From a virus: a stretch of 64,000 nucleotides of DNA. Positions 32,271-61,666 of this stretch are shown here, piece after piece. A program made the translations under genes and the position numbers. The first letter of the stretch is position 1. Every line of letters starts with the position of its first letter. The stretch covers positions 1 through 64,000 of IMG/VR virus record IMGVR_UViG_3300044612_001159; one strand, given 5' to 3'. The notes beneath the pieces are model-generated. The model was not told the DNA's origin and made no database searches. It saw nothing but the letters and a program-made list of their open reading frames with translations.

Positions 32271-32297
32271 AGACCTGAGCAAGTCTATAAACTGCTC
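32271..32297 (+). ncRNA. H-type pseudoknot element (copy A)
   Basis: AGAC-CT-GAGCA-A-GTCT-ATAAAC-TGCTC. Confidence 0.7.
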
Positions 32298-32311
32298 CTG
32301 CCCACGGGCGG

Positions 32312-32327
32312 TGTGATCTTTATCACA
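32312..32327. promoter_or_regulatory. CRP/GlxR-type site upstream of a TTGACA-N17-TAAGAT promoter
   Basis: Perfect TGTGA-N6-TCACA. Confidence 0.65.
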
Positions 32328-32470
32328 TTTGAGATTTTGACATTTTTTTGTGTTTATGATAAGATTATTTTATGAAGAAAACACCAGAGGAATTACGCAG
32401 GCTTATGGAATTACGCCGTAGCAATGCTGCCTCTGCCGTACCCTCAAAAAAGAAATACAATAGAAAGAAA

Positions 32471-32492
32471 AGTCAGTCCTCGCTGATACAAT
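32471..32492 (+). promoter_or_regulatory. RecA-NDp/PafBC-type promoter (variant)
   Basis: AGTCAG-N7-TGa-TACAAT. Confidence 0.55.
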
Positions 32493-32513
32493 TGAGGAAA
32501 GAAAGGGCCCCCC

Positions 32514-33236
32514 ATGACTAAACTAAAACGCTCTAATGATAGGAAAGTGGCTAATGCTGTATCAAAAAACGGAAAGACCCCAACAATTGCCAACACTTTT
32601 GGATTGCCTAGTGGTAAGGCTTACTCATGTCCTGGTGAAACCTCTGTATGCAGCAAAGTATGCTACGCAGGAAAACTCGAAAAGATCTACAAAGGTGTAA
32701 GAGATAATCTATTACACAATTGGAATTTACTAAAAGACGCTAACTATGAAGAGATGTATGACTTACTTTCTGCAATGATAAAAGAGTTTATTGTTGATTG
32801 TGAAAAGAAAGACGCTCCTAAACTATTCCGCATTCACTGGGACGGAGATTTCTTCAATGATGAATACGCAAGGGCCTGGAAGCATGTCATTCTAAATAAT
32901 CCTGATGTTCAATTCTGGGTATACACTAGAGTGAAATCTGCTGCCCTAATTCTCAAGGGTATGGATAATTTGTCTCTATACTACTCTGCAGATAGCGAAA
33001 ATGTCAAAACTGCTGTAGACCTAAAACTAAATCATGGTGTACGCATGGCATACCTTGCACAAAACTTTGCAACTGGTAAAGCAGATGTAAAAGAAATGAT
33101 TGGAAGACCTGCTGCTAAGTGTCCTGAAAATGCAAAACAAATTCCACTAATCTCAACTAAGGGCTCGGCTTGCGTTTCTTGCTCACTTTGTGTATACTCT
33201 AAGAGCGACATAATTTTCTCTGCGAGTAAGAAATGA
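32514..33236 (+). CDS. GP88-family protein (mycobacteriophage L5 gp88-like)
   Basis: CPG....C...CYA, FRIHWDGDF, FWVYTR, C-terminal C..C..C. Confidence 0.75.
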   Translation: MTKLKRSNDRKVANAVSKNGKTPTIANTFGLPSGKAYSCPGETSVCSKVCYAGKLEKIYKGVRDNLLHNWNLLKDANYEEMYDLLSAMIKEFIVDCEKKDAPKLFRIHWDGDFFNDEYARAWKHVILNNPDVQFWVYTRVKSAALILKGMDNLSLYYSADSENVKTAVDLKLNHGVRMAYLAQNFATGKADVKEMIGRPAAKCPENAKQIPLISTKGSACVSCSLCVYSKSDIIFSASKK

Positions 33237-33464
33237 GATAAATGGATACCAAACAAGTTATTTTATTATTGATGTTTTTATTTATTTTCTTTTTATATCA
33301 GTGAAAGGGCGGCACGTCCGCAAAATCTTTGGTTTGTCAAGTCATTATAATGTGATTATAAACACTTTATAAATCCCCCCGCAGATCCCCGCTGAATTGT
33401 ATTTTTGACATTTTTCTGCTAGACTTATACTATAAGAAATAACCCCACAACGAAAGGAAACACA

Positions 33465-33635
33465 ATGACCCTCGGAGGATACACTTATCAGATTGGTGAC
33501 CTATTCACCACCAGCAAGACAGGCGTTACAGGTCGTATCGCAAGTTTCGCACCAATGTCTAACAGTGTTACTAGAGTTAGTCTTGTCTTGGCAAATGGCT
33601 CTCGCCGTTTGGCTATGGTAAAGACCAGCAAGTAA
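33465..33635 (+). CDS. 56-aa SH3/KOW-like early protein
   Basis: Hand-translated MTLGGYTYQIGDLFTTSKTGVTGRI...; paralogue of next gene. Confidence 0.65.
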   Translation: MTLGGYTYQIGDLFTTSKTGVTGRIASFAPMSNSVTRVSLVLANGSRRLAMVKTSK

Positions 33636-33734
33636 TCTCAAAATGTGAGAAATGTCAGACCTAGATTTGACATTTTTCTACAATAATGTCATAATTATAC
33701 AATAAGCAATAACCCCTAACAGAAAGGCAACACA

Positions 33735-33899
33735 ATGTCAGTAGCAACAGCAACATACAAGGTAGGCGACACCTACACCACACAGAAGTCAAAGGTCACA
33801 GGAGTAATCACAGAGATTACACCACAAGCCAATGGTAATGTTCGTGTGAAACTTGATGTCAATGGTAAGTCACGCTATACCACTTGGACAGCAAAGTAA
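33735..33899 (+). CDS. 54-aa SH3/KOW-like early protein
   Basis: Hand-translated MSVATATYKVGDTYTTQKSKVTGVI... Confidence 0.65.
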   Translation: MSVATATYKVGDTYTTQKSKVTGVITEITPQANGNVRVKLDVNGKSRYTTWTAK

Positions 33900-33915
33900 T
33901 TCCTAATACAGGAAA

Positions 33916-33944
33916 AGTCCTGAGCACGACTACTAAAACTGCTC
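33916..33944 (+). ncRNA. H-type pseudoknot element (copy B)
   Basis: AGTC-CT-GAGCA-C-GACT-ACTAAAAC-TGCTC. Confidence 0.7.
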
Positions 33945-33952
33945 AACAAGAT

Positions 33953-33974
33953 TGTCAGCGCAAAGTGCTAGACT
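33953..33974 (+). promoter_or_regulatory. RecA-NDp/PafBC-type promoter
   Basis: TGTCAG-N7-TGc-TAGACT. Confidence 0.7.
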
Positions 33975-34004
33975 AAATACCCCACAAACGAAAGGACAGA
34001 CCCA

Positions 34005-34430
34005 ATGGCAAGAGGACAAAAAGCCATTAGTGTAAAGATTGCTACAACCAAAGTAATCAAGGCACTAGAAACTAAGTTAGACCAAATCAAGAAAGATAAG
34101 GCTAACCAAAAAACTAACGAGGAGAAGTATCAGAAGGCTTACGAAAAGTGGCTAAAAGATGTTGCTAAACTTTCTCTCGCTCAAATCTCAAAGGCAGAAA
34201 ACCTACGAGCAAGTGTTCGCTATAATGGCAACATAAATGTAGATTTTGATTTGCCTAAGTCTGCGGTAGCAGATTTCCCTGCTGAACCTGAAAAGGATTT
34301 TGAGACTTTTCACGATTGGCAATACAAGGAAATGGTAGAAGAAATTGAGAACGCAATTCGTATTCTCAAGATGACAGATGAGGAAGTAGTTTCCACATCT
34401 ACTTACAACGCTATCGCAAGATACTTGTAA
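34005..34430 (+). CDS. coiled-coil early protein
   Basis: GAAAGGA RBS. Confidence 0.65.
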   Translation: MARGQKAISVKIATTKVIKALETKLDQIKKDKANQKTNEEKYQKAYEKWLKDVAKLSLAQISKAENLRASVRYNGNINVDFDLPKSAVADFPAEPEKDFETFHDWQYKEMVEEIENAIRILKMTDEEVVSTSTYNAIARYL

Positions 34431-34436
34431 TAAAAC

Positions 34437-34463
34437 TTTCCTGAGCAAGAAATAAAACTGCTC
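34437..34463 (+). ncRNA. H-type pseudoknot element (copy C)
   Basis: TTTC-CT-GAGCA-A-GAAA-TAAAAC-TGCTC. Confidence 0.7.
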
Positions 34464-34542
34464 ACCAATAAAACTAAATAAAATTGGGTGACAGCCTGCG
34501 TTCAAGGCAGATCTATCTGCGAAAGTCCCCTGGCACTCCCTA

Positions 34543-34584
34543 ACACCTGAGTATGGAGGAAATCCTTTAGTGTCTAAACTGCTC
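34543..34584 (+). ncRNA. H-type pseudoknot element (copy D, with inserted hairpin)
   Basis: ACAC-CT-GAGTA-[insert]-GTGT-CTAAAC-TGCTC. Confidence 0.6.
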
Positions 34585-34607
34585 CACCTCAAAATCCCCC
34601 CGTGCCG

Positions 34608-34627
34608 TTATCCACAGGTTATCCACA
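34608..34627. promoter_or_regulatory. tandem DnaA box pair
   Basis: TTATCCACA-gg-TTATCCACA. Confidence 0.75.
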
Positions 34628-34629
34628 GG

Positions 34630-34645
34630 TGTGAATTTGATCACA
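34630..34645. promoter_or_regulatory. CRP/GlxR-type site
   Basis: Perfect TGTGA-N6-TCACA. Confidence 0.65.
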
Positions 34646-34694
34646 TTTACGATATGTCCGATTTATCCCTTATCTAACTATCCAGATTTGCATT

Positions 34695-34716
34695 TGTCAG
34701 ACTAGACTGCTATACT
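34695..34716 (+). promoter_or_regulatory. RecA-NDp/PafBC-type promoter
   Basis: TGTCAG-N7-TGc-TATACT. Confidence 0.7.
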
Positions 34717-34748
34717 TGAAATTCAACAAACAATAAGGAGAAAAACTC

Positions 34749-35765
34749 ATGGCACATGACCTAGAAACACAAAACGGCAAGACATCTTTCGCATCTTTCC
34801 GTGAACCCGCATGGCATGGATTGGGTACTGTCTTTACAGAAGAAAAAACAACTGCAGAAATGCTAGAGGCTGCAAACCTCAATGGTTGGAATGTTCGTCT
34901 TGAAGATATGTCTATTCCATCTCATCTAACAAGCGACAAGCAATACCAATATGTTGTTCGCACTAACCCTACCGATAACACACAAACCGACATTCTTGGT
35001 GTCGTTGGTGAGCGTTATCATGTTCTGCAGAATGAAGACCTATTTTCATTCGGTGATAATATTCTTGACGGCGGAGGTCGTTGGGAAACTGCTGGTGCAA
35101 TCAAGGGTGGTCGTGTTGTATTCGGCTCACTTGCACTAGAGCGTGAAACCGTATTAGACCCTAGCGGTGTTGCAGATAAGGTAAAGACTTATCTTCTCAT
35201 CAATACCTCACATGACGGCTCAATCGCTATTCAAGCATCAATCACACCTGTTCGTGTTGTATGCGCTAATACTCTCAATCTTGCACTAGGTGGCAAGAAA
35301 AAGAAGAATGGCATCAAGCAATCATTCAAGATTCGCCACACACAAACTGCCAATGGTAAAGTGCAGATTGCTCGTGAAACTCTTGGTCTTGCTAATGCAT
35401 ACATGGACGAATTCGACATCATGGCTAAGGCTATGTTCGAGAAGGAAGTCAATGCTCAACAATTCAATGACATCATTCTTGCTGCGTATCCAAAGCCTGA
35501 TAAAGATGCTAAGGGTTCAATCAAGAAGTGGGAAAACAAGGTTGATGTTATCAATGACATCTATACTGGCGAATTCAATGGTATGATTGCTGGTAATGCT
35601 TGGGGTGCTTTCAATGCACTAACCGAACGCCTTGATTGGTATCGTACCGCAAGAGGTGGTTCTAACGAATCAATTCTTGCATCTGCGAGTGGATTTGACC
35701 CTGCTATCAATGCAGAAAAAAATCGTTTGCTAAAAGTTGTGCAAAATGTAATGCAGATTGCATAA
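34749..35765 (+). CDS. DUF932/DUF945 phage/plasmid protein (TIGR03299-like)
   Basis: PAWHGLG, LGVVG.RY..LQN, ETAG...GG, SHDGS, TPVRVVC.NTL. Confidence 0.85.
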   Translation: MAHDLETQNGKTSFASFREPAWHGLGTVFTEEKTTAEMLEAANLNGWNVRLEDMSIPSHLTSDKQYQYVVRTNPTDNTQTDILGVVGERYHVLQNEDLFSFGDNILDGGGRWETAGAIKGGRVVFGSLALERETVLDPSGVADKVKTYLLINTSHDGSIAIQASITPVRVVCANTLNLALGGKKKKNGIKQSFKIRHTQTANGKVQIARETLGLANAYMDEFDIMAKAMFEKEVNAQQFNDIILAAYPKPDKDAKGSIKKWENKVDVINDIYTGEFNGMIAGNAWGAFNALTERLDWYRTARGGSNESILASASGFDPAINAEKNRLLKVVQNVMQIA

Positions 35766-35773
35766 ATAAAAAA

Positions 35774-35800
35774 ATTCCTGAGCAAGAATAAAAACTGCTC
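35774..35800 (+). ncRNA. H-type pseudoknot element (copy E)
   Basis: ATTC-CT-GAGCA-A-GAAT-AAAAAC-TGCTC. Confidence 0.7.
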
Positions 35801-35807
35801 ACCAATT

Positions 35808-35883
35808 GGTTCCGTAGATTAGTCTGGTTTAAATCGCTACACTGTCACTGTAGAGATCGTGGGTTCAAATCCCATCGGAATCG
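35808..35883 (+). tRNA. tRNA-Asp(GTC)
   Basis: GGTTCCG/CGGAATC acceptor, CTACA-CTGTCAC-TGTAG anticodon arm, GGTTCAAATCC. Confidence 0.9.
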
Positions 35884-36201
35884 CAAAGAAAATCGGGACG
35901 TGGGGATTCGGACATTTCGGACATAAAAATATCAATCTTAAATTAAATTACGAAGAACGAAATAAATCCCCAAAAATATCAAAACCAAAAACAATTACGA
36001 TAGAGTTGACATTTCCCTGATTTTCTGCCATAATTTATACATGACCCAAACATACAAACCATACACCATAGATGAACTGGTGACAGAAATCTATGAGGAC
36101 AACCTGTCACACTTTGAATTTGAGGAAAACATGGGTGGAGAGCCCTGTGACTGCTATCTACATAACACTATGAATACTATCATGAAATACTGGGGGGAAT
36201 A

Positions 36202-36402
36202 ATGAACCAACTAATTGAATATATAAAGATACATATCATTAGCCTAGAGCAAGACCTAGAGCAAATCTCTAATGAAATGGAAGCACTTGACCCTGCCTCT
36301 AAGGATTATACTGAGTTAGATTTTGAATATAATCATATGAGTGGACAACTTCTTTCTGCCCGCCATATTTTGTCAGTGGCCGACGGTATACTAGAGGTAT
36401 GA
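36202..36402 (+). CDS. hypothetical protein
   Basis: ORF; overlaps next start. Confidence 0.55.
   Translation: MNQLIEYIKIHIISLEQDLEQISNEMEALDPASKDYTELDFEYNHMSGQLLSARHILSVADGILEV
36371..36392 (+). promoter_or_regulatory. RecA-NDp/PafBC-type promoter, leaderless to ATG 36399
   Basis: tTGTCAGTG-N8-TATACT-N6-ATG. Confidence 0.75.
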
Positions 36403-36686
36403 TGAACACTACACAACTAGAACCAAGACTGCAGAAACTAATAGACCTAGGGGAATCAGGCACTGACATCCTCCATGGTGAACTCAAAAACCTTATGTAT
36501 GAGGCTGAAAAGGAATTGATTGAGGCCCAACGCATTGAGGAAGACAATGACTACAGCGACGCCATGGAATCTATGGAGCGAAAGTACTGGGAGGGACAGT
36601 TAGACGCTATGTCTCATGTATATGGTTTGACCTATGCCCTGGCCTTTGCAATCTCAGAGCGAAGGAGCAAGCAATCTAATGAGTGA
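36399..36686 (+). CDS. hypothetical protein
   Basis: YWEGQLDA motif; acidic helical. Confidence 0.6.
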   Translation: MMNTTQLEPRLQKLIDLGESGTDILHGELKNLMYEAEKELIEAQRIEEDNDYSDAMESMERKYWEGQLDAMSHVYGLTYALAFAISERRSKQSNE

Positions 36687-36910
36687 TGTAATAATCTTAA
36701 CAGATAGAGATGAGATTGAGGACCTGATAGGGGATCAGATCTCTGACGAGCAATGGCTAACTATCAAAGAAAAGATTGCTAGAAATAAACATATCTGGCA
36801 AGTTATTGATGAGGCCCTCAACGATATCATCTCTGAATGACATTAAGAAGGCTTGATTTATTTTCCCGATTCTGCTAGAATTGGATTACGACCACTAGAA
36901 AGGACCCCAC

Positions 36911-37645
36911 ATGCCAAACTGGGTATATAACTCGTTAGCAATAGAAGCAATAGAGGCTGACCCTAGTCAGATTACTAAACTAGTTTCTCAAGTCAATCAA
37001 CCATTTCAACGACAGCATGACCAATGGAACTCTGATACACATCAAATGGAATTGTTAGATGTTGAGTATTCCAATCCTGTCTTTGCATTCTGGAACATTG
37101 TCAAACCTACAGACCTAGAGACTTATGCTTTGCAGAAAGACCCAAACCATGATGATTCTATTATAGATTTTCAAGGTAACAACTGGTATGACTGGAATGT
37201 GCGTAACTGGGGAACTAAATGGGATGTTGCTGTTCATGATAAGGAACAGTATCCTGAAACTACTATGGAGCATGGTGATAAGTCAGTTATTTATAGTTTC
37301 AATACTGCTTGGTCCCCTCCGATTCCTGCGGTGCTTGCCCTATCAGAGCAGTATCCTGATTTAGTCTTTCATCTGTTCTACCAAGAAGAAACAGGGTGGG
37401 GTGGAGACATGCAGATTATGGGTGGTGCCACAATCAGAGAGCAACACTATGAATCACAGTGTAGAGATTGTGATGCAACTGACTGCATGGAGTATTGCGA
37501 TAACGACTGCGGTGAGATTTGTAATGAGTGTAACTATCTAGGTGAGGCTGACCTTGATGCAGTATCAGAATGTGAGATTCACAAGGCATACCTAGACGAG
37601 GAACATGTGCCCGAATACCGCAGACTTGACAAAGCCAACGCATAA
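36911..37645 (+). CDS. YubB/DUF1281-type ferredoxin-like fold protein with Cys-rich tail
   Basis: MPNW..N, WYDW...NWGTKWD, F.TAWSPP. Confidence 0.75.
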   Translation: MPNWVYNSLAIEAIEADPSQITKLVSQVNQPFQRQHDQWNSDTHQMELLDVEYSNPVFAFWNIVKPTDLETYALQKDPNHDDSIIDFQGNNWYDWNVRNWGTKWDVAVHDKEQYPETTMEHGDKSVIYSFNTAWSPPIPAVLALSEQYPDLVFHLFYQEETGWGGDMQIMGGATIREQHYESQCRDCDATDCMEYCDNDCGEICNECNYLGEADLDAVSECEIHKAYLDEEHVPEYRRLDKANA

Positions 37646-37679
37646 TGAGATAATTGAACAAACGACCCAAGGAGATAAT

Positions 37680-38006: not shown

Positions 38007-38101
38007 TTAATGGAAATCATTCTAGTAGTACTATTTGTAATCTGGTGCCTAGGTGCACTATCAGGTGGCCTAACTGGATACACAGGAGAGGTAAAGAAAT
38101 A

Positions 38102-38999: not shown

Positions 39000-39025
39000 A
39001 ATCGCCCGTGCCATACTTTTATCTG

Positions 39026-47818: not shown

Positions 47819-48764
47819 CTTGACTATTTTTTACAACGAATGCGTAAAAAATAAAAATGTTTGGAAAATAGAAAATGTTTTTTCAGATACAGAATTAAAA
47901 AACATTTATGAAAAAGTTAATCAAAAAAGAAACGAGTTTGATGAAAATTTTGTTTTTCATGGAGACTCTAGCCTAGAAGATGTAAGCGGAATAGGACCAG
48001 ATCCAGACCTTGGCAGGTTTAGAATTGGAAGAATAGAAATAACACAAGAAGTTTTTAAAAAAATAAACGATTTATTAAAAGATAAAACAAATAAAAATTT
48101 AAAACTAAGCGGTATAAGTTGTGTTGAATACAGCAATGAATACGGGGATCCAAATTTACCACCACACTTCGATTCTTGCGAAACAGATTTAATTATAAAC
48201 TTTCAATTACAATCTAATACCGAATGGGAGTTAGGATTAAATTTAGAAGTTTATAAACTCGAAGACAATTCAGCATTAATTTTTAATCCTAATGAAATAA
48301 TTCACTGGAGGCCTTTTAAAAAATTTAAAGATCAAGAGTTTGTCAAGATGATTTTTTTTAGATTTACAGATTACAAAACAGACAATAGTCATTTAATGCT
48401 AAGTCAAGACGACGAAATTTTTAGCGAAGTTCTTAAATATAGAATGAGTTTGTGTCATAACTTACAAGACTGTGACTGCTTTTGTGATGATTGCAAAAAG
48501 GCACAAAAAAATATTATAGATAAAATTATTGAAGAGTATAGAACTTGTCCAAATATAGTTCAATCAGAAGACAGACTATTTTGTTATACATGGTGGAGAC
48601 ATGACGATTGTGAAAGAATTAGAGAGTTGTTGTATAGGATTACTAAAAATCGTTTATATACCCTGCCAGAAATAAGACCATCAGTTAGTACTGCCATAGA
48701 AGAAATGATTAATGATCCAGATACCGCAGAAATATTACGAAGACTTGAAGACAGCGGTATTTGA
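47811..48764 (+). CDS. 2OG-Fe(II) oxygenase-like protein with Cys-rich C-terminal extension
   Basis: LPPHFD, HWRP, MIFFRF. Confidence 0.65.
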   Translation: MYDLTIFYNECVKNKNVWKIENVFSDTELKNIYEKVNQKRNEFDENFVFHGDSSLEDVSGIGPDPDLGRFRIGRIEITQEVFKKINDLLKDKTNKNLKLSGISCVEYSNEYGDPNLPPHFDSCETDLIINFQLQSNTEWELGLNLEVYKLEDNSALIFNPNEIIHWRPFKKFKDQEFVKMIFFRFTDYKTDNSHLMLSQDDEIFSEVLKYRMSLCHNLQDCDCFCDDCKKAQKNIIDKIIEEYRTCPNIVQSEDRLFCYTWWRHDDCERIRELLYRITKNRLYTLPEIRPSVSTAIEEMINDPDTAEILRRLEDSGI

Positions 48765-54044: not shown

Positions 54045-54050
54045 TGGATT

Positions 54051-54660: not shown

Positions 54661-55323
54661 TTATTTTCTCTTTCTATCAAAAGCAGATCCTTCCCAAATT
54701 GTTTTCTCAACTGGAATACAATTAGGAACCATTTTGCCATTTTGTTCTTTCATACCACGCTGAACATATCCATCCCAACATGGTGCTTGTTTGTTTACAC
54801 TAGCACAGCAATCTGATTTCATTTCTCCAGATTGACATTGAGGACATTGCTCACATGTTACATTTAATTCTTTACACATTGGACATCCACATCCTTCATA
54901 TGCTTTGTCCATTCCCACATTTGACTCTAATGAAGGCATAGCCATTACTTCTGATGCTTTTGCTCCAACAAAATATTCAGTCTCTTCAAGACCGCCCTCT
55001 TCCATTTCAAATAATTGTATTAGTATGGCAGGATCTTCTGCACTTGCTTCTAGAGCATACTCTGATCCTGGGGTTCCAAGCATACCTTCTGTCATTACAT
55101 GAACAACACGACCAACATACATTTCTTCTTCATGTGGGGCCATTACCATGTCGCCCTCTTTGACCATAGCCTTGCCTATATTGCCCTCAGAACGGTTTAT
55201 AGCGTAGATCTGTGCTGCAGCCTCAGAACGAGTCTTATGGCACCCCATAACCTCTCCTGTGTCCTTTAAAGCAGGGTATCCAGAACAACCATTAGACCCC
55301 TTAGAACCTATACGATACGGCAT
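54661..55323 (-). CDS. conserved phage protein with Cys-rich motifs
   Basis: GCH.T...A.AQ; PCWDGY...GMK...GK.VPNC.P. Confidence 0.6.
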   Translation of the reverse strand: MPYRIGSKGSNGCSGYPALKDTGEVMGCHKTRSEAAAQIYAINRSEGNIGKAMVKEGDMVMAPHEEEMYVGRVVHVMTEGMLGTPGSEYALEASAEDPAILIQLFEMEEGGLEETEYFVGAKASEVMAMPSLESNVGMDKAYEGCGCPMCKELNVTCEQCPQCQSGEMKSDCCASVNKQAPCWDGYVQRGMKEQNGKMVPNCIPVEKTIWEGSAFDRKRK

Positions 55324-55346
55324 AAAACTATTATAGCATAGAGTAT

Positions 55347-55373
55347 GAGCAGTTTATACACATGCTCAGGTGT
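55347..55373 (-). ncRNA. H-type pseudoknot element (copy F)
   Basis: ACAC-CT-GAGCA-T-GTGT-ATAAAC-TGCTC. Confidence 0.7.
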
Positions 55374-55389
55374 TTGATAGTATTATTAC

Positions 55390-55809
55390 TTACTTGATTT
55401 TGATTGTTTTTGGTTTCTTTTCTTCGGGGATGTTTCTCTCCACAAAGACGCTAAGAATACCGTCTGCCATTTCAGCACGATCTACCTCCATATACTCTCC
55501 AAGAGCAAAGGTGCGTGTGAACTTTCTGGTTGCGATACCCTTATGCAGGACATTACTTGCGTCCTCTTCGGCTTTCTCACCCTTTACAATAAGACTTCCA
55601 TTATCCACAGAAACCTCTACCTCATCTTTGCTGAAGCCAGCAATAGCCAGAGATAGTTTGTAAGTATCTTCATCAATCTTCACCACATCATATGGTGGAT
55701 ACGATTGACGAGTTGCCTCACGATGGATATTATAGAAGCGGTCCAACTCTCTGTTGAAACCAATAAAAAATGGATCCTTAAAAAGATCCAATGACCATGA
55801 ACTTACCAT
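55390..55809 (-). CDS. small heat-shock protein Hsp20 (IbpA-like)
   Basis: YPPYD, LA.AGF, L.KGIA.R.F.R.F.L, DG.L. Confidence 0.9.
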   Translation of the reverse strand: MVSSWSLDLFKDPFFIGFNRELDRFYNIHREATRQSYPPYDVVKIDEDTYKLSLAIAGFSKDEVEVSVDNGSLIVKGEKAEEDASNVLHKGIATRKFTRTFALGEYMEVDRAEMADGILSVFVERNIPEEKKPKTIKIK

Positions 55810-55863
55810 TATTTCCTCCTTGTTAAGCGAGTTCAATTTGTACCCCCCTTTGGGCAGGCACAA
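55810..55863 (-). promoter_or_regulatory. ROSE-like RNA thermometer candidate in the hsp20 5' UTR
   Basis: CUCGCUU can pair with the SD AAGGAG, leaving a bulged G; preceded by a second hairpin. Confidence 0.5.
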
Positions 55864-55927
55864 CTAAATTATAGCATAATAAAACAGGGATGTCAAGTAC
55901 CCATCCCTGTCCTATAAACAAATACTA

Positions 55928-56227: not shown

Positions 56228-56237
56228 TTTTTTCCTC

Positions 56238-56423: not shown

Positions 56424-56581
56424 TTATTCCCTCACATTTTGTAGTTGTGTATAATGGTTTAAACAAACATCTAGCACCCTTGTTTCTGTGCCAAACAGTT
56501 TTTCTCCGTCTTCTTTACAATTAAGAACATTACAGTGTCCAACTGGATCCAAAAATATTTGATCATAGGTTTTAAATTCTA

Positions 56582-57457
56582 TCATTTTTGTGACTCGACA
56601 TACTGATTAATAAAAGATATAATAATTTCTGATTCAGATCTTGGAACAGCATTAATTAAAAGATGATGTATATTGTCTTCTTCAAGAGTCTGGACAAATT
56701 CATGAAAACTATCATATGTGAAATATTCCACATCGCTTACTACCGCTGGTATCTCTCCCTTTTTCCAGACTGGCCTCATTGCATGTTTTGCCAGTGGCTC
56801 TAACTCTTCTTTTGTTTTTCTAATAATTGGTGTCATTGCCAGCATAACTTCTGTATTTTTAATATCAAGATTAATCATCATTGATGGATCTTTTAAAACA
56901 TCTGACCAAAATCCACGTTTATAAATATGGTAAGGCAAAATTATTTTATTTTTGTATTTTTTAACAGTATCAAAAACATAACTGTTTGTAGTTGATATAT
57001 AAACATCTAAAGTGTTCTCTAATTGCTTTCCTTCTGCAGTTTGAGTAGCCATTATGCCATTATTTATTTCATCAAGTTTTTTAATAAATTCAATTGTGTA
57101 TTTTGATCTTTCTAAAGATTCTGATAAATCATTTACCTCCCCCAAAATACCACCAATATTTTTTTCATGATCTTTGATATATCCAGGAACAACATTTATT
57201 TGAAGCCTATTTGGAGCAATCTCATTTATTGATTGAGTTATTGTATATAGATATTGTGGAGATATCGTGTATGGCCTAATTGCAACAAGATATTTAATCT
57301 TACCGTCTGTTTTGATTTCTCTTGCAACTCTTGTAAACATGTCTCCTTCTGTAGGATCATATGTATACATTACCCCAGAAAAATTATTTTTTTCAAGAAT
57401 AGGTGCTGTCTCCATGCTGTTTTCATGAAACACACCGCCAAAATAATAAAAATTCAT
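56582..57457 (-). CDS. luciferase-like flavin monooxygenase family protein (divergent)
   Basis: KYLVAIRP..ISP.Y, RL.INVV.G. Confidence 0.6.
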   Translation of the reverse strand: MNFYYFGGVFHENSMETAPILEKNNFSGVMYTYDPTEGDMFTRVAREIKTDGKIKYLVAIRPYTISPQYLYTITQSINEIAPNRLQINVVPGYIKDHEKNIGGILGEVNDLSESLERSKYTIEFIKKLDEINNGIMATQTAEGKQLENTLDVYISTTNSYVFDTVKKYKNKIILPYHIYKRGFWSDVLKDPSMMINLDIKNTEVMLAMTPIIRKTKEELEPLAKHAMRPVWKKGEIPAVVSDVEYFTYDSFHEFVQTLEEDNIHHLLINAVPRSESEIIISFINQYVESQK

Positions 57458-57867
57458 TATAACATTTTACCATAATCTTCGGGAAGTAATTTTTTTAATT
57501 GTTTAAATTCTGAAGATATTTTCTTCAGAGCAAAATCATGGGGAGAAACCATCCCCTCAATAGCAGCCCCATACTTGTCATAATAGTCAATCTGTGGCTC
57601 AATCTCATCGATAAACTTTTGTAGTCCAGCCTGAACAGACTCTATATACTCATATGCTAAATCACGAGAATCTGAAACAAATTTTAAAAAATCTTCATTT
57701 GCTTTTTCTTTATCTGTTTTGTTTTCTTTGTGCTGAATTTCTTGCTCTAACAAAGTCTTTAAAGTATTTGCAAGAATAGAAATGTTAATTCTTTTTTGCA
57801 CAATATATAAATAAATAAATAATAATGAAGTGATAGACAAAGCAACTATAGCAAACATTTCTATCAT
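57457..57867 (-). CDS. membrane-anchored hypothetical protein
   Basis: N-terminal TM; FLKFVSDSRD.AYEYIE. Confidence 0.6.
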   Translation of the reverse strand: MIEMFAIVALSITSLLFIYLYIVQKRINISILANTLKTLLEQEIQHKENKTDKEKANEDFLKFVSDSRDLAYEYIESVQAGLQKFIDEIEPQIDYYDKYGAAIEGMVSPHDFALKKISSEFKQLKKLLPEDYGKML

Positions 57868-58145
57868 AATTCTTTTCCTCCCTCTCTAACTAACTGAACA
57901 ATTGCCCCATTCTGCTCAAGAGCCTTCTTTGTTTTAATCATATAGTTTGCAGCACGAATCTTGTCATCATGACTTAAAAGCATAAAAGATTTTTCAGACG
58001 CACGAACAGTTAAAAATCCTTCTTGATGCTCAACTATCTGTAATGAAAAACCTTTAGGCGCTAAATGATCTAGTGACCTAAACGCCCTTCTCATTGCATC
58101 TGTATATACTAGTCCATTGTTAGAGACTGCCATGTTACACCCCAA
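57864..58145 (-). CDS. hypothetical protein
   Basis: ORF; start uncertain. Confidence 0.5.
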   Translation of the reverse strand: MGCNMAVSNNGLVYTDAMRRAFRSLDHLAPKGFSLQIVEHQEGFLTVRASEKSFMLLSHDDKIRAANYMIKTKKALEQNGAIVQLVREGGKEL

Positions 58146-58390
58146 TCAGCCTTTGTTTTATGATTAGAGAACTCTTTTGATATTTCGCCGTTTTCTAAGT
58201 ATACCCCGCCCCAAACTCCCCACTCTTTGCCAGAAATGCCCACAGAAAAACACTCTTTTCTTACTGGACATTCAGAACATAACAGGTCTACAGCAGGCCT
58301 TAACAACTCATCTTCTTCGTATTTATCAAAAAAAACATTAGTATCATAATCTAGGCATGCAGCATTATCTTTCCATTCATACCTATTCAT
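58109..58390 (-). CDS. whiB: WhiB-family transcription factor
   Basis: W...A.C, C..CPV...C, GVWGG. Confidence 0.9.
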   Translation of the reverse strand: MNRYEWKDNAACLDYDTNVFFDKYEEDELLRPAVDLLCSECPVRKECFSVGISGKEWGVWGGVYLENGEISKEFSNHKTKADWGVTWQSLTMD

Positions 58391-58392
58391 AG

Positions 58393-58605
58393 TTATGCTA
58401 CATACTTGTCAGGTATTTCCCATCCGTTTCTAGAGACGACAAAAATCTTTTTTAGGTACCAAGCACCGTTTTTAAGTGCTCCGTACTTTGATGTCATTGC
58501 CTTATCTGACCTTGACATTTCAACAACATTCCAACCGTCCCAAGACAAGTTTTTGTTCTTGGAAACAATTGTCTCCATTTGTTCAAGAGAATCTATTGTT
58601 TTCAT
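58393..58605 (-). CDS. hypothetical protein
   Basis: ORF with GGAG RBS. Confidence 0.55.
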   Translation of the reverse strand: MKTIDSLEQMETIVSKNKNLSWDGWNVVEMSRSDKAMTSKYGALKNGAWYLKKIFVVSRNGWEIPDKYVA

Positions 58606-58615
58606 TTTATACTCC

Positions 58616-58969
58616 TTAAAAGTTGTATACGTTTGTATTAATATTTTTTGACTTTGACAAACTAACTAGATTCGACACTCTTTCTTTTGGATTTGCAACA
58701 AAAGCAAAGTGATCAAAACTATCAATATTTTCTTCAAGCCATTGAGGAGTAACCCTAAATAGTTTGATAGACTTTCCTCTAGACTTCATACCTCTTTCAG
58801 AAAGATTTACAAACTCCATCGCCATATCATTAACATTTCCTGGACCAACAGAGTACAAGTAAAACTCTTTTTCATTATCTTTTAATTCAGACAAAGCAAC
58901 AGCCATTGCTCTAAGGAAAATATTATAGTTGTTGAAATTAGGCGTTCCCTGAACCCCTACTATCATCAC
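58616..58969 (-). CDS. SLOG/DUF2493-like protein
   Basis: I.V.GT..F.NY..F pattern. Confidence 0.4.
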   Translation of the reverse strand: MMIVGVQGTPNFNNYNIFLRAMAVALSELKDNEKEFYLYSVGPGNVNDMAMEFVNLSERGMKSRGKSIKLFRVTPQWLEENIDSFDHFAFVANPKERVSNLVSLSKSKNINTNVYNF

Positions 58970-59354
58970 TTGTCCCTTCTGTTAGTTTGTCTACTATGAA
59001 CAACATCTTATCTAATTGTACCTTATCCATGTTGGTTGTGTCAACTTTTTCTGCAGAATCTTTGTCAATTTTTTCATTTACTAAAGGGGCTTTATAAAAT
59101 GTATTATTTTTAATCCAATACGCTACATCATCTACAACTATTACCTTGGTTGTAGATTCATCTTGATGCTTACTAGACTGGGTTTTTGGCTTAAGCCTTC
59201 TCTTATGCTTTTTAGACCCTGAATATCTGTGATGAAGTCTAGCCTGACTTACAATCTGCACACTTTTTTTATGCCTACGAGCCTTGAATAGATAAAAGAA
59301 AATAGAGAGCAGCATTACTGCCGTCAAAAGGATTGCTCCAAAAATATCGTTCAC
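58938..59354 (-). CDS. membrane-anchored hypothetical protein
   Basis: N-terminal TM. Confidence 0.55.
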   Translation of the reverse strand: MNDIFGAILLTAVMLLSIFFYLFKARRHKKSVQIVSQARLHHRYSGSKKHKRRLKPKTQSSKHQDESTTKVIVVDDVAYWIKNNTFYKAPLVNEKIDKDSAEKVDTTNMDKVQLDKMLFIVDKLTEGTSDDSRGSGNA

Positions 59355-59377
59355 TGATGCCCCCTAAACTTATTTTA

Positions 59378-59710
59378 TCACTTTTTGTTAAAAAGAAGTT
59401 TGATCAACTGTTTTAGGGCTGACCTTTCATTTGCATCCAATTTTTTTACCTGCTCTGGATCAAGAGATTTTTTATTAAGACTAACAATGGGGTTGGCATC
59501 TGTCACATCCATATCAATAAAACCTTTTTCCCACAACCTCATTGACATTTCTGAAAAATATTTTCCCAATGCTACATCAAGTTTTGGATCTATGTCTTTC
59601 AACATTTCTGTTTTAACATACATGTTTTCCCCTGTTTCTGGATCCTTGCCAGCAAACCTTAGACCACCAGTTAAAACTAACTTATTGAATATTTCATTCG
59701 ATTCGTTCAT
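59378..59710 (-). CDS. hypothetical protein
   Basis: G.D.ETGE..Y; LWEKGF. Confidence 0.55.
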   Translation of the reverse strand: MNESNEIFNKLVLTGGLRFAGKDPETGENMYVKTEMLKDIDPKLDVALGKYFSEMSMRLWEKGFIDMDVTDANPIVSLNKKSLDPEQVKKLDANERSALKQLIKLLFNKK

Positions 59711-60114
59711 TTTCCAGATTTCTTTCTAGCCTTTGCCAAAGCATCAAAATCTTTTACCTTAGTATCTCCAAGGTAGCCCCATGCATAACCATTATTAATC
59801 ATGTGATCGTTTACAGAAACGGTGTCTTCGTCTACATAAAGCCAGCCAAGAATTCGACCATACTTTTCAGAAGAGTCCATCTTCTCTGTCTTAATTACTA
59901 CAGACTTTGCATCCTTCAAAAACTTCTTTAGGTACTCTTTGGACTCTAGGCCCAAAGCCTTTTCCTTAAGGTCTTTTGTACGAGATTCTGGGGTATCAAT
60001 GCCAGCCAGCCTTACACGAGATGCAAACAAAATATCAAACCCTAAATCAATTAGAACGTCAATGGTATCCCCATCTACTACGTTCTCTACTTTTCTTACA
60101 TAGTATGTATACAT
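59707..60114 (-). CDS. staphylococcal nuclease (SNase) homologue
   Basis: VVDGDT, VRLAGIDTPE, KYGRIL. Confidence 0.85.
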   Translation of the reverse strand: MYTYYVRKVENVVDGDTIDVLIDLGFDILFASRVRLAGIDTPESRTKDLKEKALGLESKEYLKKFLKDAKSVVIKTEKMDSSEKYGRILGWLYVDEDTVSVNDHMINNGYAWGYLGDTKVKDFDALAKARKKSGK

Positions 60115-60365
60115 TAGTAATCTTGCCCCTTTGCTTTATTTTCAATCAGTTTATTTCTTTCATCAAGAATGGTAATTGCAAACTTCATCATTTTGTCGTA
60201 ACCAACAGCATTGTCCATAACCTTGTTATAGTGATGACCACAAAACAACAAGTCTCCGTTTAAGCCAGTTACTCTCACTAGGGCCTCAGCACCACATCTA
60301 TCACACCTGTCAATTGGGGATAGTTGCCACTCTGCCTTAGCCTCATCTTTAACCATTGTAAACAT
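60114..60365 (-). CDS. small Zn-binding actinobacterial-type protein
   Basis: DRCDRCGA...L.FCGHH. Confidence 0.65.
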   Translation of the reverse strand: MFTMVKDEAKAEWQLSPIDRCDRCGAEALVRVTGLNGDLLFCGHHYNKVMDNAVGYDKMMKFAITILDERNKLIENKAKGQDY

Positions 60366-60366
60366 A

Positions 60367-60552
60367 TTATACCTTCCGATTGTCAGTAGAATAAAATCCA
60401 CTACCGTTGAATACTGCTCCTACATTAGAGTATACACGAATTAGATCTGAATTGCAAGCATCACATTTATACCCTGGATCGTTTTCGGACATAGACCTAA
60501 TCTTTGTATATCTTATTGCACAAGACATACAGTCATATTCATATGATGGCAT
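60367..60552 (-). CDS. FmdB-family zinc ribbon protein
   Basis: MP.YEY.C..C...C..C...F.GSGFYSTD. Confidence 0.8.
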   Translation of the reverse strand: MPSYEYDCMSCAIRYTKIRSMSENDPGYKCDACNSDLIRVYSNVGAVFNGSGFYSTDNRKV

Positions 60553-60661
60553 TATTTCTTTTTCGTTTTAGCCTTTACTTGCCAAACAGGAAGTTTAAGT
60601 TCGTCGCCAGACCATTCATAACCTAATGCTTTTACTACGAACTTGATAATTTTAATACGCA

Positions 60662-60880
60662 TTATTTAACCTTTCTGCCAAACTTGGCCCATACTCTTTC
60701 ATGCAAATAAAAGAATGTCATTTCTAGTGCTAGATATGATAGCCCATAAAGACCAACATATTCCCACTCTGCTTCTCCAGTATAATATTTAAGTACAAAA
60801 TAAATTATTCCAGAAACAAAAGTAAAATGTACAAACGGCCAACTAATAGTCTTCAACAAAGACTTCTTTTTTGATTCCAT
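60662..60880 (-). CDS. DUF2061 membrane protein
   Basis: SLLKTISW...FYLHERVW. Confidence 0.7.
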   Translation of the reverse strand: MESKKKSLLKTISWPFVHFTFVSGIIYFVLKYYTGEAEWEYVGLYGLSYLALEMTFFYLHERVWAKFGRKVK

Positions 60881-61521
60881 TATAGCGCTACCTGTGCCTT
60901 TCCTCCACCGCCACCAGCAACCTTCTTCTTCTTTTTCTTTGCAGCAGGCTCTGCAGATGTTGCAGTATCAGATGAACCAACCTTACTCAATAGCGGAAGG
61001 CTTTCTTCTCCAGCGTATACTGGTCTTCCCCATCCAACAACAGCATTAACCAACTTCTTCTTGTTGTTCTTAACATATGCACGAGTTTTCTCTACACACA
61101 TTCCACCATTGCGCTGGTCTCCCTTTGCAGTTCCAGAGGTATTGCCTTCGATGACTTGAATAGTTCCATCACCATTATTCTTAATACAAAGACCAACATG
61201 CGAAATACGATTTACGCCATCTTCTGGGAAATCAAAATAAATCCAATCACCTGGAGTTGGATCGTCGTTTCTGGCATCTGCCCAACGATCATTCTTCTTA
61301 AACCAATCAGACGCTGCAACAGTTGCTGCGGTCTTTGGATATTTCTTTGGATCTAGCCCTGCAGTAAATGCACACCAAGAAACAAATGATTGACACCATG
61401 GCAAAAAGTTTGCACCTGTCCACTTACCATACTTTGTCTCATTATCTTTTGGACCCTCAATAGTTCCGAGTTCCTTTTTTGCAACCTCAATGATTGCTTC
61501 TAAACTACCTTTAACTGCCAT
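60880..61521 (-). CDS. CHAP-domain endolysin
   Basis: PWC..FVSW, PGD, HVG, IEGNT. Confidence 0.85.
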   Translation of the reverse strand: MAVKGSLEAIIEVAKKELGTIEGPKDNETKYGKWTGANFLPWCQSFVSWCAFTAGLDPKKYPKTAATVAASDWFKKNDRWADARNDDPTPGDWIYFDFPEDGVNRISHVGLCIKNNGDGTIQVIEGNTSGTAKGDQRNGGMCVEKTRAYVKNNKKKLVNAVVGWGRPVYAGEESLPLLSKVGSSDTATSAEPAAKKKKKKVAGGGGGKAQVAL

Positions 61522-61562
61522 AATATTCCTCCTTGTTGATATGACAATATAATTATATCACG

Positions 61563-61635
61563 CTGCCCCACCTGGTCTCGATCCAGGGACATCCGAATTA
61601 ACAGTTCGGCACTCTACCATCTGAGTTATAGGGCA
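61563..61635 (-). tRNA. tRNA-Asn(GTT), atypical T-loop ATCGAGA
   Basis: CCGAA-CTGTTAA-TTCGG; TGCCCTA/TGGGGCA. Confidence 0.8.
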
Positions 61636-61639
61636 ATGT

Positions 61640-61666
61640 GGGCAGTTTTTAGTCATACCCAGGACT
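61640..61666 (-). ncRNA. H-type pseudoknot element (copy G)
   Basis: AGTC-CT-GGGTA-T-GACT-AAAAAC-TGCCC. Confidence 0.7.

Follow-up and report, generated by a model that had tools for sequence, protein, structure and literature searches.

This study confirmed a small RNA fold that is missing from the RNA family catalogue: a compact H-type pseudoknot with covarying stems P1 and P2, strongly supported by the sequences compared, of which one phage carries seven copies, each in the same orientation as the genes around it. We propose, at a rough probability of 0.45, that the knot is a compact 3'-end element which would survive terminating ribosomes and, after a downstream cut, block 3'-to-5' exonucleases. 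The element is about 27 nt long and comprises a P1 of 4 bp, an L1 C(U), a P2 of 5-6 bp, an L2 of 1 nt, variable in identity, and an L3 of at least 6 nt ending in AAAC. Across copies, P2 is usually (U)GAGCA/UGCUC(A).

The window analysed corresponds to positions 1-64,000 of IMG/VR record IMGVR_UViG_3300044612_001159, the whole virus record being 115,665 bp long. A degenerate pattern (CCTGRGYA-N(1-30)-AAACTGCYC) matched seven times in it (+32274, +33919, +34440, +34546, +35777, -55347 and -61640), where chance would give none (0 matches in 100 dinucleotide shuffles of the window). A covariance model run with filters off recovered the same seven at E <= 0.0025 and only noise below them, so that the seven copies of the original prediction are real; extending the pattern search to the 115,665-bp record returned only these. 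Their common consensus is NNNC-CU-GRGYA-N-GNNN-(N)nAAAC-URCYC.

Five copies occurred on the plus strand. Copy 1 (32271..32297; P1 AGAC/GTCT, P2 GAGCA/TGCTC, 42.7 bits) begins 5 nt beyond the stop codon of ORF 31825-32265, spacings being counted from ORF end to first P1 base. A predicted sigma-70-type promoter (32337..32365, +; TTGACA-17-TAAGAT, TG-extended) follows 39 nt after it, which assigns this copy to the 3' part of the unit upstream. Copy 2 (33916..33944; P1 AGTC/GACT) has a longer L3, ACTAAAAC, and is separated from the stop of ORF 33735-33899 by 16 nt containing a small hairpin (33900-33914, +); a predicted TGTCAG-N10-TAGACT promoter (33953..33974, +) stands 8 nt behind it. Copy 3 (34437..34463; P1 TTTC/GAAA) starts 6 nt past the stop codon that closes ORF 34005-34430, and copy 4 (34543..34584; P1 ACAC/GTGT, P2 GAGTA/TGCTC with one G-U) 79 nt after copy 3, with no ORF end nearby. 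The hairpin that had been noticed between P2a and P1b of one copy corresponds to a 16-nt insert of copy 4 (34554-34569, +) forming 6 bp; 110 nt after this copy, upstream of the DUF932 gene, a TGTCAG-N10-TATACT promoter was predicted (34695..34716, +). Copy 5 (35774..35800; P1 ATTC/GAAT) is enclosed between the DUF932 gene (34749-35765), whose stop lies 8 nt upstream, and tRNA-Asp(GTC) (35808..35884, +), which begins 7 nt downstream.

The two remaining copies are on the minus strand. Copy 6 (55347..55373; P1 ACAC/GTGT) follows the stop of the Hsp20 gene (55390-55863) by 16 nt. A perfect sigma-70-type promoter (12/12, TG-extended) was predicted in front of Hsp20 (55868..55896, -), and promoter, gene and copy 6 would compose one promoter-gene-pseudoknot unit. 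Direct sequence reading gave an extended -10 element, TGCTATAAT (55330..55338, -), 8 nt after copy 6 and just upstream of the ATG of the next gene (55323, -). Copy 7 (61640..61666; P1 AGTC/GACT, P2 GGGTA/TGCCC with one compensated pair and one G-U) is enclosed between ORF 61672-62544, whose stop lies 5 nt upstream, and tRNA-Asn(GTT) (61562..61635, -), which begins 4 nt downstream. By these ORF-end spacings, six of the seven copies occur 5-16 nt downstream of a sense-strand stop codon and two end 4-7 nt before a tRNA, as originally described.

Both stems covaried well beyond this phage. Among 98 sequences picked by the fixed P2 only, P1 being ignored, P1 was paired in 98/98 and 97/98, with all four Watson-Crick types present, and none of 500 shuffles matched its covariation score. 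Conversely, selection by P1 only gave a fully paired P2 in 23 of 40 non-consensus copies; within this phage, P2 was GAGCA/TGCTC in five of seven copies, the variants of copies 4 and 7 occurring once each. The G-U pairs of P2 are viable on one strand only, which fixes the strand of action and indicates that the motif acts as RNA. The covariation and wobble pairs first noticed in seven copies were borne out in the wider alignment, and the RNA-level pseudoknot extends to hundreds of other phage sequences. About 17 positions were almost invariant across phages of different phyla.

The motif was found in at least 119 IMG/VR contigs, versus 23 for a reversed control, and in assemblies from many phyla. 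Cultured carriers are phages of Mycobacterium, Arthrobacter, Roseobacter, Lentibacter, Paracoccus (a T7-like phage), Clostridium and E. coli/Erwinia. They are unrelated (Patiencevirus, Zobellviridae, Autographiviridae, Chaseviridae and others), and no gene family common to the flanking genes was found. A cmscan against Rfam 15, a check named in the original prediction, returned no match either at gathering thresholds or at E <= 10, and thus gave no support to the link with STAXI or another Rfam family suggested there.

Gene context was surveyed on 129 copies, with ORFs and promoters called heuristically and many of the sampled loci belonging to related phages. A same-strand stop codon occurred within 25 nt before the start of 71 of them, with a sharp onset of the stop-to-knot distance at 5 nt and a mode at 5-10 nt. 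Same-strand tRNAs were recorded 4-14 nt downstream of 15/129 copies, whereas no copy was located 0-60 nt downstream of a tRNA; in Arthrobacter phage Amigo, the order is SSB gene, knot, 4 nt and tRNA-Gly. Two other mRNA-to-tRNA junctions of the present phage (48764/48798 and 54044/54051) are devoid of a knot, which counts against a 3'-end role.

Predicted promoters separate the knot from the next gene at copies 1, 2, 4 and 6, and further ones follow the tRNAs that adjoin copies 5 and 7; no intrinsic terminator is present after any of the seven. The TGTCAG-type promoter pattern matched 11 times in the window for 1.05 expected. Over all loci, promoter-like sites within 300 nt of the knot were more frequent downstream than upstream, both for the TGTCRG type (20 versus 3) and for the sigma-70 type (32 versus 15). 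The 9 nt after the knot were G-poor (2-17% G) and U/A-rich, and are thus likely single-stranded.

Several known structures resemble the phage motif. The compact frameshifting pseudoknots of luteovirus type (BWYV, PLRV, PEMV-1 and ScYLV) are likewise H-type and about 28 nt long, with a stem 1 of 4-5 bp, a loop 1 of 1-2 nt with C, a short stem 2 and an A-rich loop 3, possibly lining the stem 1 minor groove. Their location 5-9 nt downstream of the A-site codon is also comparable (PMC10321173). Yet, they follow a slippery heptamer in overlapping ORFs and act in recoding, of which the phage motif displays no sign; the latter is associated with a stop codon, a non-coding stretch or a tRNA junction, belongs to DNA phages of bacterial hosts and has a longer (5-6 bp), nearly fixed stem 2.

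The coremin motif (xrRNA-C) and xrRNA-WCC occur in plant and invertebrate RNA viruses (PMC6546385, PMC10520033, PMC10321173), and these pseudoknots stall Xrn1 and ribosomes (PMC10321173, PMC10520033). They share with the phage motif a short stem 1 and an AAAC(U) spacer pairing back to the hairpin loop, and the GAG/CUC loop pairing of xrRNA-WCC equals the outer three pairs of phage P2. All are small and protein-independent, the viral ones mechanically blocking both a processive enzyme and ribosomes. However, coremin depends on a loop of the form YGAD or YGNNAD and on another hairpin immediately downstream, whereas the phage loop opens with CU and such a hairpin was not enriched after the knots. 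Loop 1 must be G in xrRNA-WCC and is C(U) here, and coremin stops the eukaryotic Xrn1 from the 5' side while the phage context suggests the 3' side. The comparison gave no sign of common descent.

In the MALAT1/MEN-beta 3'-end module, a triple helix precedes the tRNA-like mascRNA, at which RNase P cuts. The tRNA-adjacent phage copies parallel this arrangement, with a compact, probably triplex-stabilised structure a few nt from a tRNA-shaped RNase P substrate, so that RNase P would make a 3' end shielded by structure. In MALAT1, though, a U-A-U triple helix clamps the genomically encoded A-rich tail of a eukaryotic nuclear RNA, whereas the phages have an H-type pseudoknot and genuine tRNAs, and most copies lack a tRNA. 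Bacterial 3' stabilisers (intrinsic-terminator hairpins and REP elements) hold the same place, immediately behind the final cistron of a unit, and the role proposed for the phage motif, to stop PNPase and RNase II, is also theirs; the phage motif differs in being a pseudoknot and not a GC-rich hairpin, in lacking a U-tract, in its sequence conservation across phyla and in being roughly half as large as a REP element. The acceptor pseudoknot of TYMV-type tRNA-like structures, like RNase P model substrates, builds a quasi-continuous helix. The phage knot would do likewise and ends in A, often ACC(A), with a U at -1 and a G-C first pair, but CCA is found in a minority of copies, the helix is shorter, no T-loop or anticodon-domain mimic exists, and the motif is internal to mRNAs instead of at a genome 3' end. 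Finally, the preQ1-I riboswitch resembles the motif in size and shares its P1-L1-P2-L2-P1'-L3(A-rich)-P2' topology; STAXI, a small pseudoknot, comes from mobile-element contexts. Neither produced a cmscan match, and in contrast to preQ1-I the ligand-reading loop position is variable here and the knot follows genes instead of occupying 5' leaders of queuosine genes.

Among other explanations, a bidirectional or 5'-side roadblock of the xrRNA/coremin kind, stopping 5'-to-3' decay by RNase J or RNase E scanning and thereby protecting the downstream cistron or insulating neighbouring ones, appears unlikely. It would suit the 38/129 copies whose 3' end precedes a start codon by 15-45 nt and so borders on a ribosome-binding region from the 5' side; these, 23 of them not near a called stop, may reflect a 5'-side role for the downstream cistron. 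The architecture, AAAC(U) and GAG...CUC of coremin and xrRNA-WCC also speak in its favour (PMC10321173, PMC10520033). Nevertheless, the predicted promoters beyond at least four copies of this phage imply that the knot is missing from those downstream primary transcripts, no copy follows a tRNA, where a fresh 5' end would need protection, and the hairpin required by coremin is not enriched. The motif also occurs in E. coli phages although this host, to our knowledge, has neither RNase J nor an mRNA 5'-to-3' exonuclease, which favours a 3'-side role. Rather less likely is a ribosome-directed element, with the knot at the mRNA entrance of a ribosome decoding the stop codon, where it would influence termination or recycling, or else prevent scanning and re-initiation after termination and so uncouple neighbouring cistrons. 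The stop-to-knot spacing indeed equals that between slippery sites and frameshift pseudoknots. In addition, knots of the coremin type cause ribosomes to stall and promote frameshifting (PMC10321173, PMC10520033). But the spacing had no strong frame preference, and stops ahead of the knots (UAA 50, UAG 15, UGA 6; control ORF ends 702/264/426) were enriched in UAA and depleted in UGA, the leakiest one, which favours efficient termination over read-through. Moreover, 58/129 copies have no called stop close by, copy 4 follows no ORF, and tRNA-adjacent copies leave nothing for re-initiation.

A specific ligand, protein or catalytic RNA (a site bound by a conserved protein of host or phage, a preQ1-I-like aptamer, a minimal self-cleaving ribozyme or an anti-defence decoy) is quite improbable. 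The near-invariant positions exceed what helix stability needs; the conservation of P2, L1 and AAAC in distant phages is also more than a mere roadblock would seem to require, a point against the 3'-end reading and a hint that a specific partner or an unusual tertiary fold is involved. Still, the flanking genes share no family, the unrelatedness of the carriers argues against a phage-encoded partner, L2, site of the ligand-reading C in preQ1-I, is variable, and the copies are dispersed, unlike tandem type III antitoxins. At 27 nt, the element is also shorter than every natural self-cleaving ribozyme that we know of. Very unlikely, too, is an RNase P substrate mimic, in which P2, stacked on P1, would mimic the acceptor arm of a tRNA, like the tRNA-like pseudoknot of TYMV (U at -1, G1-C72, A73, often CC(A)) and a cut between CU and GAGCA would separate cistrons. 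The U directly 5' of P2 is invariant, the first pair of P2 is G-C, 70% of copies have an A at +1, no tetramer follows the motif more often than ACCA (13/129 versus about 5 expected), and a universal enzyme would explain the host range. On the other hand, ACCA occurs in only about 10% of copies and ACC in about a quarter; the enzyme needs no fixed acceptor sequence, which leaves the conservation of GAGCA/UGCUC and AAAC unexplained; and in 68/98 copies the U ahead of P2 is able to pair with the A at +1, which would disfavour canonical cleavage. Such a cut would also remove any 3' structure from the upstream message, and a site 30 nt ahead of a genuine tRNA site seems redundant. A transcription termination or pause signal replacing hairpin-plus-U-tract terminators is just as improbable. 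The knot occupies the terminator position between units without canonical terminators, and a TTTTT run lies within 25 nt downstream of 17/129 copies (3.7-fold enrichment); most copies, however, lack a U-tract, carriers include both host-RNA-polymerase phages and phages with T7-like polymerases (Autographiviridae, Chaseviridae), and tRNA synthesis needs read-through of the copies directly upstream.

Of the functions initially offered, 3'-end protection or processing best fits the context, given the onset at least 5 nt after stops, the position ahead of tRNAs and never behind them, and the predicted promoters that follow; the different RNA polymerases of the carriers, and hosts that span several phyla, make a pure termination signal or a phage-specific protein tag less probable. 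As a 3'-end module, the knot would sit as near the stop codon as a terminating ribosome permits without melting it. The first paired base, at least 6 nt past the stop, would lie around position +12 relative to the P site, immediately beyond the helicase site of the ribosome. The 3' end of the upstream RNA may arise by RNase P cleavage where a tRNA follows 4-14 nt later (at tRNA-Asp, this would leave a 7-nt tail on copy 5), or elsewhere by an endonuclease or run-off in the 9 nt or so after the knot. With 9-10 bp the knot is small, and RNase R is able to unwind structured RNA, which weighs against this reading. Two interleaved helices would lock the knot torsionally, probably helped by loop-groove triples. 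The spread over hosts of many groups fits such a host-independent, RNA-intrinsic role, in which the knot would serve phage messages as a module at gene ends or 3' ends, halting 3'-to-5' exonucleases and giving the upstream cistron a defined, stable end.

Seven copies of a compact RNA motif occurred in the window, at 32271, 33916, 34437, 34543 and 35774 on the plus strand (copies 1 to 5) and at 55347 and 61640 on the minus strand (copies 6 and 7). The pattern CCTGRGYA-N(1-30)-AAACTGCYC matched these seven sites, which were those of the original prediction, and gave no match in 100 dinucleotide shuffles; the half-pattern AAACTGCYC by itself retrieved the same sites only. The window represents the initial 64 kb of a 115,665-bp IMG/VR record rated complete by CheckV, and the full record held the same seven copies and none additional. 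Likewise, a covariance model trained on unrelated copies and run with filters off recovered exactly these seven (E 3e-11 to 0.0025), below which only noise appeared. Six copies had been expected 5-16 nt past a sense-strand stop codon and two at 4-7 nt from a tRNA 5' end. The measured distances from the stop of the same-strand ORF to the knot were indeed 5, 16, 6, 8, 16 and 5 nt, while copy 5 ended 7 nt ahead of tRNA-Asp and copy 7 ended 4 nt ahead of tRNA-Asn. The hairpin thought to interrupt one copy was traced to copy 4, where a 16-nt insert between strands P2a and P1b folds into a small hairpin. This insert displays a strong Shine-Dalgarno-like GGAGG (34555-34559, plus strand) with a GTG 10 nt further, at which no ORF of at least 40 aa begins. 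Copies 3 and 4 border a 78-nt non-coding spacer (34465-34542, plus strand) holding a T-arm-like GTTCAAG loop. This spacer may be the remnant of a tRNA or else a small RNA; its predicted fold was not better than that of shuffles (z = -0.77).

The motif is an H-type RNA pseudoknot made of two interleaved helices, each with compensatory changes. Helix P1 (4 bp) and helix P2 (usually GAGCA/UGCUC) were each assessed on sequences selected without regard to that helix. For P1, IMG/VR was scanned with P2 and the loop sequences fixed, which yielded at least 119 loci. Among the matches listed, a 7-nt gap was found in 100 of 142 instances, and P1 was perfectly Watson-Crick paired, with many different sequences, in 99. 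The reversed pattern retrieved 23 loci with scattered gap lengths, and a chance origin was rejected on both counts. The two central P1 pairs were formed in 98/98 and 97/98 of the matches listed, with all four Watson-Crick types represented, and the outer pair in 76/98. None of 500 shuffles reached the P1 covariation score, 147 cells were changed on both sides, and pairing fell to 23-41% in slid registers. For P2, the same 1.2 Mb was scanned with only P1, CCU, G and AAAC required. All five pairs were formed in 23 of the 40 matches whose P2a differed from GAGCA (chance below 1% per match), with at least 10 distinct pair combinations and compensated changes at four of the five positions (GGGUA/UACCC, GGACA/UGUCC, AAGCA/UGCUU, GGCCA/UGGCC, AGACA/UGUCU and AAAUA/UAUUU). 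The covariation of both helices, initially proposed from the window copies, thus held in these wider samples. Many P2 pairs were G-U, as expected at the RNA level, and the opposite strand would have A-C mismatches at these positions. A DNA-level promoter or operator was rejected because of the free covariation of P1 and because only one of the strands can form the G-U pairs. When P2 was held fixed, CU (loop 1) and AAAC (the end of loop 3) were invariant on the sense strand. The base following P2b was A in 70% of copies and the U of loop 1 is able to pair with it, so that P2 grows to 6 bp and loop 1 becomes a single C.

We regard the motif as a new RNA family of a structural kind that is already known. 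At gathering thresholds, Rfam 15 reported only six tRNAs in the whole window. At E <= 10, no match fell on the motif in region 32000-36000, and the 61 nt around copy 1 gave chance matches only (6.7-12.5 bits, unrelated families). STAXI, to which a link had tentatively been drawn, was consequently abandoned as an identity, together with preQ1 and known ribozymes. Full-text literature searches on the motif sequence, on phage pseudoknots at message ends and on bacterial exonuclease-resistant RNAs returned no description; the motif could be among the candidate viral RNAs, about 10,000 in number, that were catalogued in 2023 (PMC10690425).

No close relative of the phage was found among GenBank phages by BLAST of its DNA. 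The product of its DUF932 gene is about 52% identical to Streptomyces phage proteins, and a low-GC actinobacterial host is plausible. The motif is not limited to this lineage and also occurs in cultured phages. In Mycobacterium phage Labelle (Patiencevirus) the knot lies 6 nt past a stop codon, in Paracoccus phage ParKuw1 (Autographiviridae) between two genes, and in Roseobacter phage SIO1 (Zobellviridae) 11 nt past the ribonucleotide reductase stop; Lentibacter and Celeribacter relatives of SIO1 were recorded as BLAST matches only, as were crAss-like phages cr7_1 and cr124_1. Arthrobacter phage Amigo (Amigovirus) displays an SSB gene followed by the knot and, 4 nt further, tRNA-Gly, and Clostridium tetani phage phiCT19406B (unassigned Caudoviricetes) carries the compensated P2 AAGCA/UGCUU. 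Labelle, ParKuw1 and Berlingot, an Erwinia Y2-like phage, hold one copy each. Berlingot and E. coli phage phiEcoM-GJ1 represent the Chaseviridae (retrieved loci L247, 1490-1530, and L254, 1190-1230, respectively). In their copies P1 position 3 is a G-A mismatch, beside a fourth pair that covaries (U-A versus A-U). The phiEcoM-GJ1 motif falls within the annotated 80-codon hypothetical gene gp30, which may be a mis-call. In bacterial genome contigs, matches with a gap other than 7 nt were mostly at chance level. Saccharibacteria, Lachnospiraceae, Anaerolineae, Calothrix and Polynucleobacter were among the labels of assemblies with true copies (gap of 7 nt, P1 paired), which probably belong to prophages or binned phage contigs. 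No copy was present in the chromosome of E. coli K-12.

The genomic context was analysed for 129 distinct, fully paired copies, with ORFs of at least 60 codons called heuristically. A same-strand stop codon lay within 25 nt upstream of 71 copies, with a sharp onset at 5 nt (exactly this spacing in 14 copies) and a mode of 5-10 nt. For these stop-proximal copies the next ORF was mostly more than 60 nt away, a long interval compared with usual intergenic regions of phages. Thirty-eight copies ended 15-45 nt ahead of a start codon, and 15 had stop and start features together. Stops ahead of the knot were predominantly UAA, and UGA was depleted (UAA 50, UAG 15, UGA 6, versus 702, 264 and 426 for control ORF ends). 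Three-frame stops ahead of the knot were weakly, not significantly, enriched, and the stop-to-knot spacing revealed no clear frame preference. The spacer 5' of the knot was A-rich and the nine bases 3' of it were G-poor (2-17%) and U/A-rich, with U at 37-45% from +3 to +9 and T5 runs after 17 copies. The 36 nt downstream were not enriched in hairpins (mean -3.55 kcal/mol, versus -2.99 for shuffles and -3.69 for windows 150 nt further downstream). In the 36 nt upstream, significantly stable hairpins were present in 29% of cases; windows placed another 150 nt upstream had them in 6%. These upstream hairpins often overlapped the stop codon (loci L008-L126; for example 35738-35764 and 33900-33914 in the window), and a few, as in L080, resembled complete intrinsic terminators ahead of the knot. 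Flanking genes were diverse (GP88, DUF932, Hsp20, peroxidase, ssDNA-binding proteins, ribonucleotide reductase, SSB), and a shared partner protein encoded alongside was rejected for this reason.

A same-strand tRNA followed 15 of the 129 copies at a distance of 4-14 nt, and the 60 nt downstream of tRNAs held no copy. Two gene-to-tRNA junctions of the window are free of the knot, at 48764/48798 (plus strand, ahead of a tRNA-Met/Glu/Arg cluster) and 54044/54051 (plus strand, ahead of tRNA-Thr), and the knot is therefore optional at junctions of this kind. Genes of about 335-350 codons recurred directly upstream of the pseudoknot (L013, L021, L028, L040, L068, L072, L073, L075, L107, L109 and window 34749-35765), in several cases with tRNA-Asp next. 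Relatives of this phage may thus share a conserved module of gene, knot and tRNA; DUF932 identity was confirmed only for the window gene (34749-35765) and a 316-codon gene in L020.

In this phage the knots lie where units end. Promoter prediction placed strong sites of the sigma-70 or TGTCAG type downstream of copies 1, 2, 4 and 6, and past the tRNAs that trail copies 5 and 7. Hsp20 (55347-55896, minus strand) forms a self-contained unit comprising a perfect TTGACA-17-TATAAT promoter (12/12), the gene and the pseudoknot; beyond this knot lies an extended -10 element for the next gene, which seems to be leaderless (ATG at 55323). Over all loci, promoter-like sites were more frequent in the 300 nt downstream than upstream of the knot (20 versus 3, and 32 versus 15). 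The pattern TGTCRG-N10-TANNNT had 11 matches versus 1.05 expected, at 27141-36392 and 52887 of the window, on both strands and mostly ahead of small early genes. Near-perfect CRP/FNR-type palindromes (TGTGA-N6-TCACA) occur at 32312-32327 and 34630-34645 (plus strand), each in the promoter region past a pseudoknot (copies 1 and 4), which suggests that a host Crp-family protein may regulate early units of the phage. Two tandem consensus DnaA boxes (TTATCCACA) at 34608-34616 and 34619-34627 (plus strand) lie directly upstream of the second palindrome, between copy 4 and the DUF932 gene.

Beyond its fold and positions, we infer that the element acts as a 3'-end module, a reading to which we assign a probability of about 0.45. 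Given the lower limit of 5 nt and a ribosome positioned on the stop codon, pairing in the knot would begin at about +12, counted from the P site. The helicase site of the ribosome ends just short of this position, so that terminating ribosomes would not need to melt the knot; it would otherwise be as near to the stop as possible, and the strong UAA stops are consistent with this. Where a promoter is predicted between knot and next gene, the knot cannot be in the downstream primary transcript. Ahead of tRNAs, RNase P cleavage would leave the knot with a tail of 4-14 nt, and 3' exonucleases need a longer tail to load efficiently. Such an RNase P-made 3' end is suggested by the strictly one-sided tRNA link, and the layout recalls the MALAT1 triple helix followed by mascRNA. 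At loci without a tRNA, the G-poor single-stranded tail might serve as an endonuclease site. Compared with an equally sized hairpin, the knot would be expected to be harder to unwind, whichever end is attacked. It resembles luteoviral triplex-stabilised knots in its two interleaved helices, the C in loop 1 and the AAAC in loop 3, and may contain C-(G-C) and A-minor triples. A broader proposal is more tentative: phages of most bacterial phyla would share a protein-independent, nuclease-proof knot of about 27 nt, equivalent in prokaryotes to the exonuclease-resistant RNAs known from eukaryotic viruses. Together with a downstream tRNA (RNase P) or endonuclease site, this knot would form a dedicated MALAT1-mascRNA-like mRNA 3'-end module, ending and stabilising individual messages without transcription terminators.

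A roadblock acting on the 5' side or in both directions, as in coremin, would agree with the copies located 15-45 nt ahead of starts and with a likeness to coremin and xrRNA-WCC, two Xrn1-stalling knots of plant and invertebrate RNA viruses. In xrRNA-WCC, three Watson-Crick pairs GAG/CUC join loop to spacer and the single loop 1 nucleotide is G (PMC10321173); the same GAG/CUC forms the outer pairs of phage P2, but phage loop 1 is C(U) and its P2 has 5-6 pairs. The hairpin 1 loop of coremin (xrRNA-C) is YGAD or YGNNAD (PMC6546385, PMC10520033), whereas the phage P1 loop is CUGAGCAN, with U rather than G as second base. The coremin spacer after hairpin 1 is GUUAAACUAC, of which the phage motif shares only AAACU, its loop 3 being (N)nAAAC followed by UGCUC. 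Both viral elements need a second hairpin directly downstream for Xrn1 resistance, an enrichment missing from the phage motif, and membership in coremin was rejected on loop and hairpin grounds. Given also the promoters predicted past the knots, the absence of copies downstream of tRNAs and the presence of the motif in E. coli phages, such a roadblock appears unlikely. A role directed at the ribosome is rather improbable: the stop-to-knot spacing fits, including the 5-9 nt of a -1 frameshift or read-through stimulator, but such a stimulator was rejected since stops are mostly UAA with UGA depleted, no clear frame preference was seen, and several copies adjoin tRNAs or trail no ORF.

The near invariance of about 17 positions across phyla keeps a specific protein, ligand or catalytic role among the candidates, at low odds. 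It is left unexplained if the knot mimics the tRNA acceptor arm as an RNase P substrate. Such a substrate would combine an acceptor-like helix, a 3' RCCA and an unpaired 5' leader. The U at -1, the initial G-C pair of the helix, the A at +1 (70%) and a 2.4-fold excess of ACCA speak for mimicry, yet cleavage would strip the 3' structure from the upstream message, and we consider mimicry very unlikely; ACCA followed the knot in 13 of 129 copies only, and the helix has 9-10 bp and no T-loop. A terminator is equally hard to credit, considering the missing U-tracts, the different polymerases used by carrier phages and the tRNAs downstream. The GC-rich hairpin with direct U-tract of an intrinsic (Rho-independent) terminator was not found, terminator scanning showed no enrichment over shuffles (5 versus 3.7 +/- 1.7; 8 versus 4.2 +/- 1.9), and the sole matches at a knot were two weak overlapping ones after copy 1 (32291-32312).

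Function aside, the motif is a strongly covarying RNA class missing from Rfam, and as a mark of unit boundaries it may assist the annotation of phage transcription units. Its carriers include cultivable phages whose hosts are E. coli, Mycobacterium smegmatis, Arthrobacter and Roseobacter, which makes direct testing possible. If the knot truly fixes and shields message ends, it would constitute a new and very compact route by which bacteria and phages obtain stable mRNA 3' ends, one that would depend on neither terminators nor the host. Synthetic biology would gain a natural 27-nt stabiliser part, and the knot would be the first bacterial relative in kind of the viral exonuclease-resistant RNAs.
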